From Escherichia coli (GTDB lineage: Bacteria; Pseudomonadota; Gammaproteobacteria; Enterobacterales; Enterobacteriaceae), in NCBI RefSeq assembly GCF_045037415.1, contig NZ_CP173438.1: a DNA stretch of 64,000 bases; one strand, given 5' to 3'. The stretch's first letter is position 1. Every line of letters starts with the position of its first letter. Below are positions 31,441 to 32,949 of the stretch, in pieces. The position numbers and the translations under genes were made by a program. The notes below the pieces were generated by a model. It was not told the origin of the DNA. It worked only from the letters and a program-made list of their open reading frames with translations, and ran no database searches.

Positions 31441-31506
31441 CGTTTAGGAAAGGCTTGCCAAAAAGAATGATGTTATAGTTTTCGAAAAAAATGCAGGAGA
31501 ATAAAA

Positions 31507-32898
31507 ATGCTCTGTGGAGGTCTTTCTTTGCGAGACTTTATGCATAAACTGCATAAAGTTTTGCGACCAACGGGTCCAGTTGTTTCTATGGAACTGTTAT
31601 TTGGACGTGAAAAACATGTAACCGATCTCGAATTGGCGCTTTATGCTACAGGTCGGCATGCTTTCATTTATGGTGATCGCGGAGTAGGAAAGACATCCTT
31701 AGCGCAAACTGTTGCTTTTAAGCTGCAGGAAGATGCTGAACCTATTTTGGTTGGCTGCGAGAAAGAATCCACTTTTTCAAGTGTCATGAATGACATTATT
31801 TTGCGAGGCACACCTCAGGATAAGAAAATCGATACACAGGGATGGAGCTTTGGCTTAAATGTGGCTGGAATTGGTGGTATCAATGCTGGTCAAAATCAAA
31901 AATATAATTATCCAGAACTGAAAATTGACTCAGTTTCTGCAGCCGTTCGGGCGTTGCAATTTTTAACTAAAGTTCACTCAAAGATTCCTTATATAGTTAT
32001 CGATGAGTTTGACCAAATTGACTCTGATGAAGAACGACAAAAGTTTGGATCACTCATTAAACAACTTGGTGATCAGGCGTGTGAAGTAAAATTAATTTTT
32101 ACGGGGATTGGTGATTCTCTCGTTACTTTAATCGGAGGGCATAAATCAAGTGAGCGACAAATACATCAGGTACATCTCGATAGTTTACCATGGAATGGTC
32201 GTTTTCAAATAATTGATAATGCTTTCGATGAGTTTGGCCTGACTGTCGATGATTCTGTCCGCTATAAAATTGCGGGTCTTAGTGACGGGTTCCCGAACTA
32301 CATTCATCTTATTTGTGAAAAAATCCTTTTAACATGTCAAAGCTCAATACGTGAATACAGCTCTGTTGATTACAACCTTTTCATTAAAGGGTTAAATGAT
32401 GCAATTGATTCAGTCTCGGAAACTTTAAGGCAAAGTTACACGGATGCAACAGAGGGACGTGATGAGTCATATAAGCATATTCTTTGGGCTATGTCCGATA
32501 TGGCTGATTTGACCAGACATAAGACTCATATATCAGAATCGTACGTTAAAATTTGCAAATCGCTTGATGTAACACCTTTAGATAAATCCACGTTTGAGCG
32601 AAAGTTCAATGCATTGAAGAAACCGACATTTGGATGCATCATCATCCCTGCTTTAGGGAATCGTCCATCTTGGTTTCGATTTAGAGAAAACATGCTTCGT
32701 GGTTATATTCGAATGAGAGCGGAGCAGCATGGACTTGAGTTGGACTTCCAAAATTATCGTGTTGCTGGAGAGCATTCTGCTAGGGCTATAGGCAAATACT
32801 CTGCTTATAAACCGTTAACTAATGTTGAAGGACGAGTAGCCAAGCTAAGAGGTGATAACGACTGGCTTGACGACATAAAACCAAATCCTATTAAGTGA
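31507..32898 (+). CDS. P-loop NTPase of unknown function (AAA/Arch_ATPase-like), low-GC moron
   Basis: 463-aa ORF with AGGAGA RBS; Walker A GDRGVGKTS and Walker B YIVIDEFD; markedly AT-rich compared with flanks; own terminator. Confidence 0.6.
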   Translation: MLCGGLSLRDFMHKLHKVLRPTGPVVSMELLFGREKHVTDLELALYATGRHAFIYGDRGVGKTSLAQTVAFKLQEDAEPILVGCEKESTFSSVMNDIILRGTPQDKKIDTQGWSFGLNVAGIGGINAGQNQKYNYPELKIDSVSAAVRALQFLTKVHSKIPYIVIDEFDQIDSDEERQKFGSLIKQLGDQACEVKLIFTGIGDSLVTLIGGHKSSERQIHQVHLDSLPWNGRFQIIDNAFDEFGLTVDDSVRYKIAGLSDGFPNYIHLICEKILLTCQSSIREYSSVDYNLFIKGLNDAIDSVSETLRQSYTDATEGRDESYKHILWAMSDMADLTRHKTHISESYVKICKSLDVTPLDKSTFERKFNALKKPTFGCIIIPALGNRPSWFRFRENMLRGYIRMRAEQHGLELDFQNYRVAGEHSARAIGKYSAYKPLTNVEGRVAKLRGDNDWLDDIKPNPIK

Positions 32899-32922
32899 CG
32901 ATTAATGTGAATAATTAAATCA

Positions 32923-32949
32923 GGCTGCCTTCGGGTGGCCTTTTTATTT
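32923..32949 (+). terminator. Rho-independent terminator after NTPase gene (UUCG tetraloop)
   Basis: GGCTGCC-TTCG-GGTGGCC (two G-U pairs) followed by TTTTTATTT. Confidence 0.6.

Follow-up and report, generated by a model that had tools for sequence, protein, structure and literature searches.

What does a solitary P-loop ATPase gene do in the late region of a lambdoid prophage, between the antiterminator gene and the lysis genes? The question is raised by a 64,000-nucleotide stretch of Escherichia coli contig NZ_CP173438.1 (assembly GCF_045037415.1), hereafter the window, in which positions 31507–32898 encode a 463-amino-acid protein (ATG start, stop codon included; RefSeq WP_021562676.1, "ATP-binding protein"). 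Coordinates are those of the window; the gene, its signals, its motifs and its two flanking genes all lie on the plus strand. The junction between Q and the holin gene is best known for Shiga toxin genes, and an initial annotation, made from the letters of the DNA, had proposed that the ATPase gene is a stand-alone moron with an anti-phage or abortive-infection role. The best explanation of the whole, which we judge to have an even chance of being correct, is that the gene is a mobile moron whose product, an AAA+ ATPase resembling Orc1/Cdc6 and STAND proteins, protects the lysogen from other phages or mobile elements.

The ATPase gene forms a mobile single-gene cargo unit

The left flank of the slot is a Q-like antiterminator gene at 30789–31367, which matched phrog_753 ("anti-termination protein Q-like," 6e-67) and is named "DUF1133 family protein" in RefSeq. 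The right flank, at 32995–33330, is a lambda-family holin gene according to both its RefSeq annotation and its match to phrog_126 ("holin/anti-holin," 4e-39). The placement between Q and holin read initially is borne out by these matches, as is the sharp AT-richness of the segment: the ATPase reading frame has a GC content of 0.398 (0.312 at third codon positions), compared with 0.509 for the window, 0.461 for the Q-like gene and 0.506 for the lysis cassette.

The gene is enclosed by two intrinsic terminators. The upstream one (31412–31446), absent from the initial annotation, occupies the tR′ position and consists of an ACCCGC/GCGGGU stem followed by a U-run. It folds at −18.6 kcal/mol (z −5.8), is stronger than the downstream one, and is kept 5′ of a homologue in another prophage (locus L023). 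The downstream terminator (32922–32950; GGCUGCC-UUCG-GGUGGCC and a U-run) was called by terminator scan and folds at −13.1 kcal/mol (z −2.6). Together with a Shine–Dalgarno sequence, AGGAG, read at 31495–31499, 7 nt 5′ of the ATG, it accounts for the ribosome-binding site and UUCG hairpin reported before. The homologues at loci L021 and L023 likewise have a hairpin and T-run both before and after the gene, and the downstream stems differ in all three versions.

Two promoter candidates were considered. The promoter scan returned a late, pR′-like candidate, TTGGCA-16-TAAATT, at 31315–31342, by consensus match only; because scan sites around the ATPase gene were no more numerous than in shuffled sequence, this candidate is put forward tentatively. 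A possible extended −10 element for a promoter of the gene's own, TGtTATAGT, can be read at 31471–31479, where the aligned upstream region of the L021 homologue has TGaTAGAAT. The nearest −35 candidate, TTGCCA at 31455–31460, is poor, lying merely 13 nt from TGtTATAGT. No open reading frame of at least 50 amino acids was found in the intergenic regions flanking the gene, antisense frames inside it are short, and no small partner frame was seen in the window; an Rfam scan gave no RNA family within 31300–33000.

Comparison with other E. coli genomes showed how mobile the unit is. Of 5426 complete genomes, 55 had the ATPase gene at ≥99% identity and 1256 had the adjacent holin gene. Nucleotide homology to the other prophages that share this holin resumes at about 32935–33016, inside or just past the downstream terminator, and two sister E. 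coli prophages carry the same holin, endolysin, HNH and terminase genes with other genes between the antiterminator and the holin. On this evidence, it is well supported that segment 31412–32950 of this lambdoid E. coli prophage is a horizontally mobile unit with one cargo gene, laid out as upstream terminator, candidate own promoter, ribosome-binding site, reading frame and downstream terminator. The description as a stand-alone moron is supported by the terminators on both sides, the AT-rich composition, the absence from related prophages and the lack of a conserved partner gene. That a terminator is kept before the holin gene although tR′ already lies upstream suggests that transcription may start inside the unit in the lysogen.

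The product is an AAA+ ATPase with a probable winged helix

For analysis of the protein, conservation was scored in an alignment of 221 family members, and a model was built with AlphaFold2 from 38 homologues (mean predicted local distance difference test, pLDDT, 82.8). Both nucleotide-binding motifs named initially were read in the sequence, with their key residues invariant: Walker A, G56DRGVGKTS64 (31672–31698), has G56, G61, K62 and S64 conserved at 100%, and Walker B, Y162IVIDEFD169 (31990–32013), has D166 and E167 at 100%. Upstream of them lies an hhGRE motif, L31-F-G33-R34-E35, kept by the family as L31-x-G33-R34-E, which we take to be common to Orc/Cdc6 and STAND proteins. This motif, G56 to K62, D166-E167 and G261-F-P263 are all at least 96% conserved; K185 and G200 are also kept across the family.

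Between helices α2 and α3, at the position of the initiator-specific motif, the model and column entropy place a variable, predicted-disordered insert (amino acids 102–142; 31810–31932). Its pLDDT falls below 50 at residues 106–134, its columns have the top entropy, and family members differ in its length, from 28 to 51 amino acids; with the C-terminal tail, it is the most variable part of the protein. Immediately before strand β5, as assigned by DSSP, lies the motif H212-x-S214-x-x-R217 (32140–32157), with H212 conserved at 99% and S214 and R217 at 100%. This is the arginine-finger position in AAA+ proteins, and R217 is accordingly placed as a candidate arginine finger. The AAA+ lid (amino acids 226–282; 32182–32352, from model and alignment) carries an invariant S-D-G261-F-P263-x-Y-x-H267, a GxP motif that we take to be STAND/PF01637-like, not the sensor-2 arginine of Orc1/Cdc6.

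The C-terminal ∼250 amino acids had been described as free of recognisable motifs, which the models and structure search contradict. In the AlphaFold2 model, only 29 residues, forming one helix, precede the ATPase domain; an AAA+ base (∼30–225) is followed by the lid (229–280), a three-helix bundle (289–330), a helix-strand-helix-helix-hairpin unit (336–407) and a low-confidence tail. A separate model of residues 283–415 reached a pLDDT of 92.6, and its best PDB matches were to the winged helices of Cdc6 and ORC1 and, after these, to winged helix-turn-helix DNA binders (STIV F93, ArsR/MarR families), all with moderate scores (E 0.03–0.1, template modelling (TM) score about 0.5; best E 0.03, TM 0.53). 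Sequence profiles gave a similar indication: Cdc6_C was the top Pfam match for this part, below threshold (E 0.08 for the query, ≤0.1 for 5 of 27 members), and residues 291–375 of relative P0141 aligned to positions 262–344 of TIGR02928, its winged-helix part. The bundle and winged helix (amino acids 283–410; 32353–32736, from sub-domain model and alignment) have a net charge of +8; the winged-helix segment is the sole basic part of the protein, and its wing and next helix are conserved (R386, W389, R398 and R402). The tail (amino acids 411–463; 32737–32895) has low model confidence and is variable or absent in distant relatives. The C-terminal half of the protein therefore consists, in the models, of an AAA+ lid, a helical bundle and what is probably a nucleic-acid-binding winged helix.

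A Foldseek search of the PDB with the full model returned first archaeal Cdc6 (1fnn), PABY2304 (2qen) and Orc1/Cdc6 (2qby), and after these ORC subunits, CED-4, Apaf-1, plant NLRs and RFC; in structural comparison, NLRs scored ∼13 and MalT 12.5. The product is a stand-alone AAA+ ATPase of the Orc1/Cdc6–STAND part of that class, and its likeness to Orc1/Cdc6 is at fold level only. The archaeal PF01637 (ATPase_2) proteins PABY2304 and SSO1545 (2fna) are 15–16% identical to the query. They have ∼350 amino acids, no known function and no known carriage by phages, and compared with them the query has an extra 40-amino-acid variable loop, the three-helix bundle and the tail; the Pfam match to ATPase_2 extends over just 135 of the 225 model positions, at the N-terminal end.

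The protein belongs to a large family that current models do not claim

The query matched phrog_6841 (function unknown) over its full length (6e-103). It is not a chance reading frame: a word-indexed search gave 665 homologues, and the family comprises 2175 representative clusters at 50% identity (E ≤1e-3). Among the best 150 of these representatives, nearly all have 410–470 amino acids, and none has a fused extra domain. The family is a large, unannotated one that travels in phage cargo slots.

Curated models were scanned next to these counts with the query and its relatives (20 for PADLOC v2, 8 for NCBIfam r20). Pfam gave only generic P-loop or AAA+ matches for the query, namely AAA_16 (2.3e-9), AAA_22, ATPase_2 (4.3e-5) and nSTAND1 (1.8e-4, residues 29–332), and no effector domain. 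In NCBIfam, the query matched nothing above any curated cutoff; the best match, TIGR02928 (Orc1/Cdc6; 4.7e-9), reached 35.6 bits against a cutoff of 181.3 and covered amino acids 29–115 only, and PRK00411.1-3 scored 15.6 against a threshold of 501. The relatives scanned likewise gave NCBIfam matches at the level of the P-loop or below threshold. A profile search of PDB sequences returned P-loop matches only (e.g. ArsA and ClpC), with Cdc6 at 4e-4.

In PADLOC, four of the 20 relatives tested, all of them distant (27–29% identity to the query), matched the single-gene candidates PDC-S59 (P0258, P0259 and P0261, E 3e-13 to 8e-10) or PDC-S27 (P0225, 9e-7). These matches of distant relatives are full length, whereas neither model picks up the query or its closer relatives even at E ≤1. 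PDC-S59 and PDC-S27 are computational candidates that are not known to have been validated. The remote member P0141 matched the NTPase module of Avs1b (1.6e-6), P0081 gave a faint, P-loop-level match to Avs3a (E 0.0031, residues 22–70), and the 576-amino-acid relative P0213 had no PADLOC match. WP_021562676 was found neither in the literature nor in the DefensePredictor supplements searched; Brenes & Laub 2025 lay outside that search and may already validate the family. In their 2026 STAND survey, Lee et al. refer to STAND clades encoded by prophages, with Brenes & Laub 2025 as the source.

Relatives occupy cargo slots of phages and islands

Recurrence of the gene at the junction between late regulator and holin was looked for and found. 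Relatives at 43–95% identity fill the same slot beside different lysis and packaging modules. In an Enterobacter roggenkampii prophage, the gene for an 84%-identical protein lies between a gene for a 201-amino-acid late-region protein and a holin_8/holin_3_7/GH108 cassette, and on two further contigs (76% identity), where the terminase is another one, a DUF1133 gene precedes it and a holin_3_1/GH19 cassette follows. In IMG/VR, a relative is encoded in 89 stretches representing 78 distinct loci, ∼20 of which are ordered late regulator, ATPase, lysis genes, with at least four types of lysis cassette (flanks labelled by BLAST). In other IMG/VR loci, the gene has a cI-like repressor as its neighbour, precedes DUF968 or stands at the end of a prophage.

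Beyond this junction, the contexts are diverse. The homologue in an Edwardsiella prophage sits between a repressor/HipA_2–DUF3037 pair and the integrase, and that in an Erwinia prophage follows the integrase at the prophage's end; others are in Vibrio and Photobacterium prophages and in an island between two integrases. On an integrase-bearing Pseudomonas island, the homologue neighbours GajA (Gabija, E = 0), a UvrD-like helicase and the candidate PDC-S28. In the Cluster N mycobacteriophage Kevin1, it lies in the central variable region beside a HicB-like gene. Across the contexts, which number more than 15, no neighbour gene was conserved.

Several of these loci carry further genes of note. 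In the Edwardsiella ictaluri prophage, the HipA_2 and DUF3037 pair (L002, 5570–7122) matched the PADLOC candidate PDC-M66A at 1.1e-17, which suggests that its immunity region is a cluster of candidate defence cargo. At L020 (8337–9206), a 289-amino-acid gene that neither Pfam nor PADLOC matched shares 38 nt with the 3′ end of a distant homologue and may be a lineage-specific partner. The prophage of the 76%-identical homologue at L023 encodes, just past its lysis cassette (8498–8779), a protein of the Acb2/Tad1-hairpin family, whose members we take to be anti-CBASS/anti-Thoeris sponges; candidate defence and counter-defence cargo may here stand side by side.

Proposed function and alternatives

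The anti-phage reading is drawn from the prophage cargo slots, the immunity and integrase regions, the Gabija island, the central variable region of Kevin1, and the links of remote members to PDC-S59, PDC-S27 and Avs1b. With function judged by context, the gene is a good and credible candidate for a single-gene anti-phage protein lacking an effector domain. The earlier proposal of an anti-phage or abortive-infection NTPase has this context on its side; no recognisable effector or sensor domain and no anti-phage match in PADLOC or NCBIfam came to its support.

In the proposed mechanism, the ATPase would shield the lysogen against other phages or mobile elements. Bound to ATP, it would assemble on nucleic acid or on a phage protein–DNA complex by means of its winged helix and variable loop, by analogy with the assembly of Orc1/Cdc6, TnsC and MuB on DNA. 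The assembly would then block replication, transcription or packaging of the invader or recruit a host factor. We infer that the lysogen expresses the gene and that the product binds nucleic acid, oligomerises and stops phages; what the analysis establishes is the gene, its motifs, fold, cargo status and recurrent contexts. A bolder form of the proposal, which we consider rather unlikely, is that an initiator fold has been co-opted as an effector-less immune protein that senses phage DNA or a replication or packaging intermediate by its winged helix and hypervariable loop, polymerises on that target with ATP and blocks the invader directly. Such a family would have been spread by phages through cargo slots and would follow a logic distinct from that of nuclease systems and of Avs/NLR sensors with their fused effectors, a suggestion that we hold to be equally speculative.

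A precedent for defence by an effector-less prophage ATPase is GiPD474, a single P-loop ATPase of the Gifsy-1 prophage that alone reduces plating of T4, FO1 and Alf5 (PMC12724215). It was also tried as a homologue and rejected: GiPD474 is described as a ParA/MinD-type (AAA_31) protein of ∼360 amino acids, encoded by a 1,086-nt locus in the immunity region (PMC12724215), and the query matches AAA_16, ATPase_2 and Orc/Cdc6 models. The two were set apart by these descriptions. TnsC, MuB and BREX BrxC have no sequence relationship to the query and different C-terminal domains, and no transposase or BREX partner genes lie nearby.

Several observations weigh against a defence role. No PADLOC or NCBIfam anti-phage model matched the query beyond the P-loop, PADLOC v2 giving P-loop-length matches only. 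With no effector domain, the means of interference would be left unexplained, and the anti-phage role itself is argued from context. The winged helix, on which the mechanism leans, is assigned from the sub-threshold profile scores and moderate Foldseek scores given above. Two contexts are of another kind: a 40%-identical homologue in Nitrogeniibacter aestuarii (L009, 6735–9365) lies 30 nt after rtcB, in an RtcR/Band_7/zinc-finger/RtcB RNA-repair operon, and another homologue is on a small resolvase island that is not defence-like. The rtcB context does not fit the prophage-cargo pattern. Finally, the sigma-70 promoter scan called no promoter between tR′ and the ATPase ATG, TGtTATAGT included. 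Since the gene's own promoter is only an uncalled TGnTATAGT match, expression may be mainly late and Q-dependent, a pattern just as compatible with a role in lytic growth of the phage itself.

That role is the main alternative, and we think it possible though unlikely. The ATPase would be a Q-dependent late gene serving its own prophage, and Q-modified RNA polymerase would read through both terminators; with the same modest likelihood, its tasks might be counter-defence, host takeover or interference with phage-hijacking satellites. In its favour, the ATPase gene is the first gene 3′ of the Q-like gene and the tR′-like terminator, the same position recurs in ∼20 viral loci, and the promoter scan gave no convincing sigma-70 site from tR′ to the ATG. 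However, other relatives are found in immunity and integrase regions, which the lysogen transcribes, as well as at the ends of prophages and, next to Gabija, on non-phage islands. Most related prophages lack the gene, and the terminator kept between gene and holin is hard to explain by antiterminated transcription alone.

A second alternative, which we find doubtful, is a non-immune DNA-binding ATPase that alters expression in host or prophage, or chromosome biology, whether in lysogenic conversion or in maintenance and regulation, much as the AAA_16-type regulator MalT does for expression. The fold would suit such a protein, MalT being among the structural comparisons. However, no target gene or operon adjoins the homologues consistently across the contexts surveyed, and the distribution tracks mobile-element cargo slots and a defence island, not a regulon.

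That the protein genuinely initiates replication in the manner of Orc1/Cdc6, or acts as a loader or partition ATPase of this prophage or of some other replicon, is very improbable. Orc1/Cdc6 proteins are among the best structural matches, and TIGR02928 is the best match in NCBIfam; yet the query stays far below the family cutoffs, and confident homology to a replication ATPase, which the initial annotation had named as evidence against its proposal, did not emerge at 35.6 bits. The gene, which is found in bacteria and phages, also lies in a cargo slot and not in a replication module: the prophage's own replication module (DnaT-like and P-like) is 7–8 kb upstream, and the ATPase gene stands in the late region between terminators and is missing from sister prophages. 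In addition, the family has GxP…H where initiators presumably have a sensor-2 arginine. Genomic position and scores together exclude a replication initiator.

Just as improbable is a canonical Avs/STAND receptor, in which detection of a phage protein would switch on a fused effector. In favour of it are the nSTAND1 match, the hhGRE and GxP motifs, the NLR, CED-4 and Apaf-1 structures among the matches and the Avs1b link of P0141, but the architecture rules it out, there being no N-terminal effector and no C-terminal repeat sensor. Shared with STAND/Avs proteins are hhGRE, the P-loop (Walker A), Walker B, GxP in the helical domain, the order of nucleotide-binding domain, helical domain and winged helix, and occurrence in both prophages and defence islands. 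The differences are the lack of an effector of the nuclease, protease, SIR2 or TIR type and of a TPR/WD40-type sensor, an end ∼50 low-confidence residues past the winged helix, and a length of 463 amino acids, compared with ∼1000–2000 for Avs. The query had no Avs match in PADLOC. STAND proteins usually lack an arginine finger, and the query has the invariant R217 at that place.

If the protein is anti-phage, a widespread family (the 2175 clusters, from gamma- and betaproteobacteria and actinobacteriophages) would join the defence repertoire. The protein is claimed by none of the models in PADLOC, NCBIfam and Pfam, and current detection tools miss the family. The protein would also be a compact model of an AAA+ switch that stops phage without a nuclease, NADase or membrane effector, and the junction between Q and holin would be marked as a slot for immunity cargo. 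If it is instead a gene of the lytic cycle, it would represent a new late function passed modularly among lambdoid phages. The prophages with this gene reside in E. coli from human clinical sources, strains that also harbour the yersiniabactin island.

Other features of the prophage and the window

Upstream of the Q-like gene, at 29782–30774, a DUF968 protein matched phrog_96 ("HNH endonuclease") over its full length (2.4e-175). Towards its C terminus it shows an HNH-like arrangement of Cys and His, and it is a companion of the ATPase slot in many related prophages. A second AT-rich cargo gene (34380–34988; GC ∼0.38–0.39) lies between Rz and the HNH/terminase genes and encodes a 202-amino-acid DUF2441 protein (phrog_9842, function unknown); as sister prophages hold iss or a DUF6979 gene there, the site appears to be another variable cargo position.

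A hok/sok type I toxin–antitoxin locus was identified by the Rfam sok match at 28643–28814 (106.7 bits) and a 51-amino-acid Hok-like reading frame at 28812–28967 (hokD in RefSeq). On the minus strand, the early-left/immunity region contains C4 antisense RNA (20763–20850), isrK (20875–20951) and DicF (21185–21236); the matching RefSeq record has dicB and a gene of the Rha family next to them. From position 1 to ∼14800, the window is occupied by the yersiniabactin high-pathogenicity island (irp2, ybtA and ybtPQXS), which ends with an integrase beside tRNA-Asn (Rfam tRNA, 14701–14773); after it come mtfA and tRNA-Ser, where the prophage begins. In RefSeq record NZ_AP022533.1, which carries the same prophage, the integrase is annotated as frameshifted (L025, 15596–16646) and the tail-fibre gene stfP as truncated (L026, 11447–11747); from these two lesions, the prophage may be defective with its cargo genes intact.

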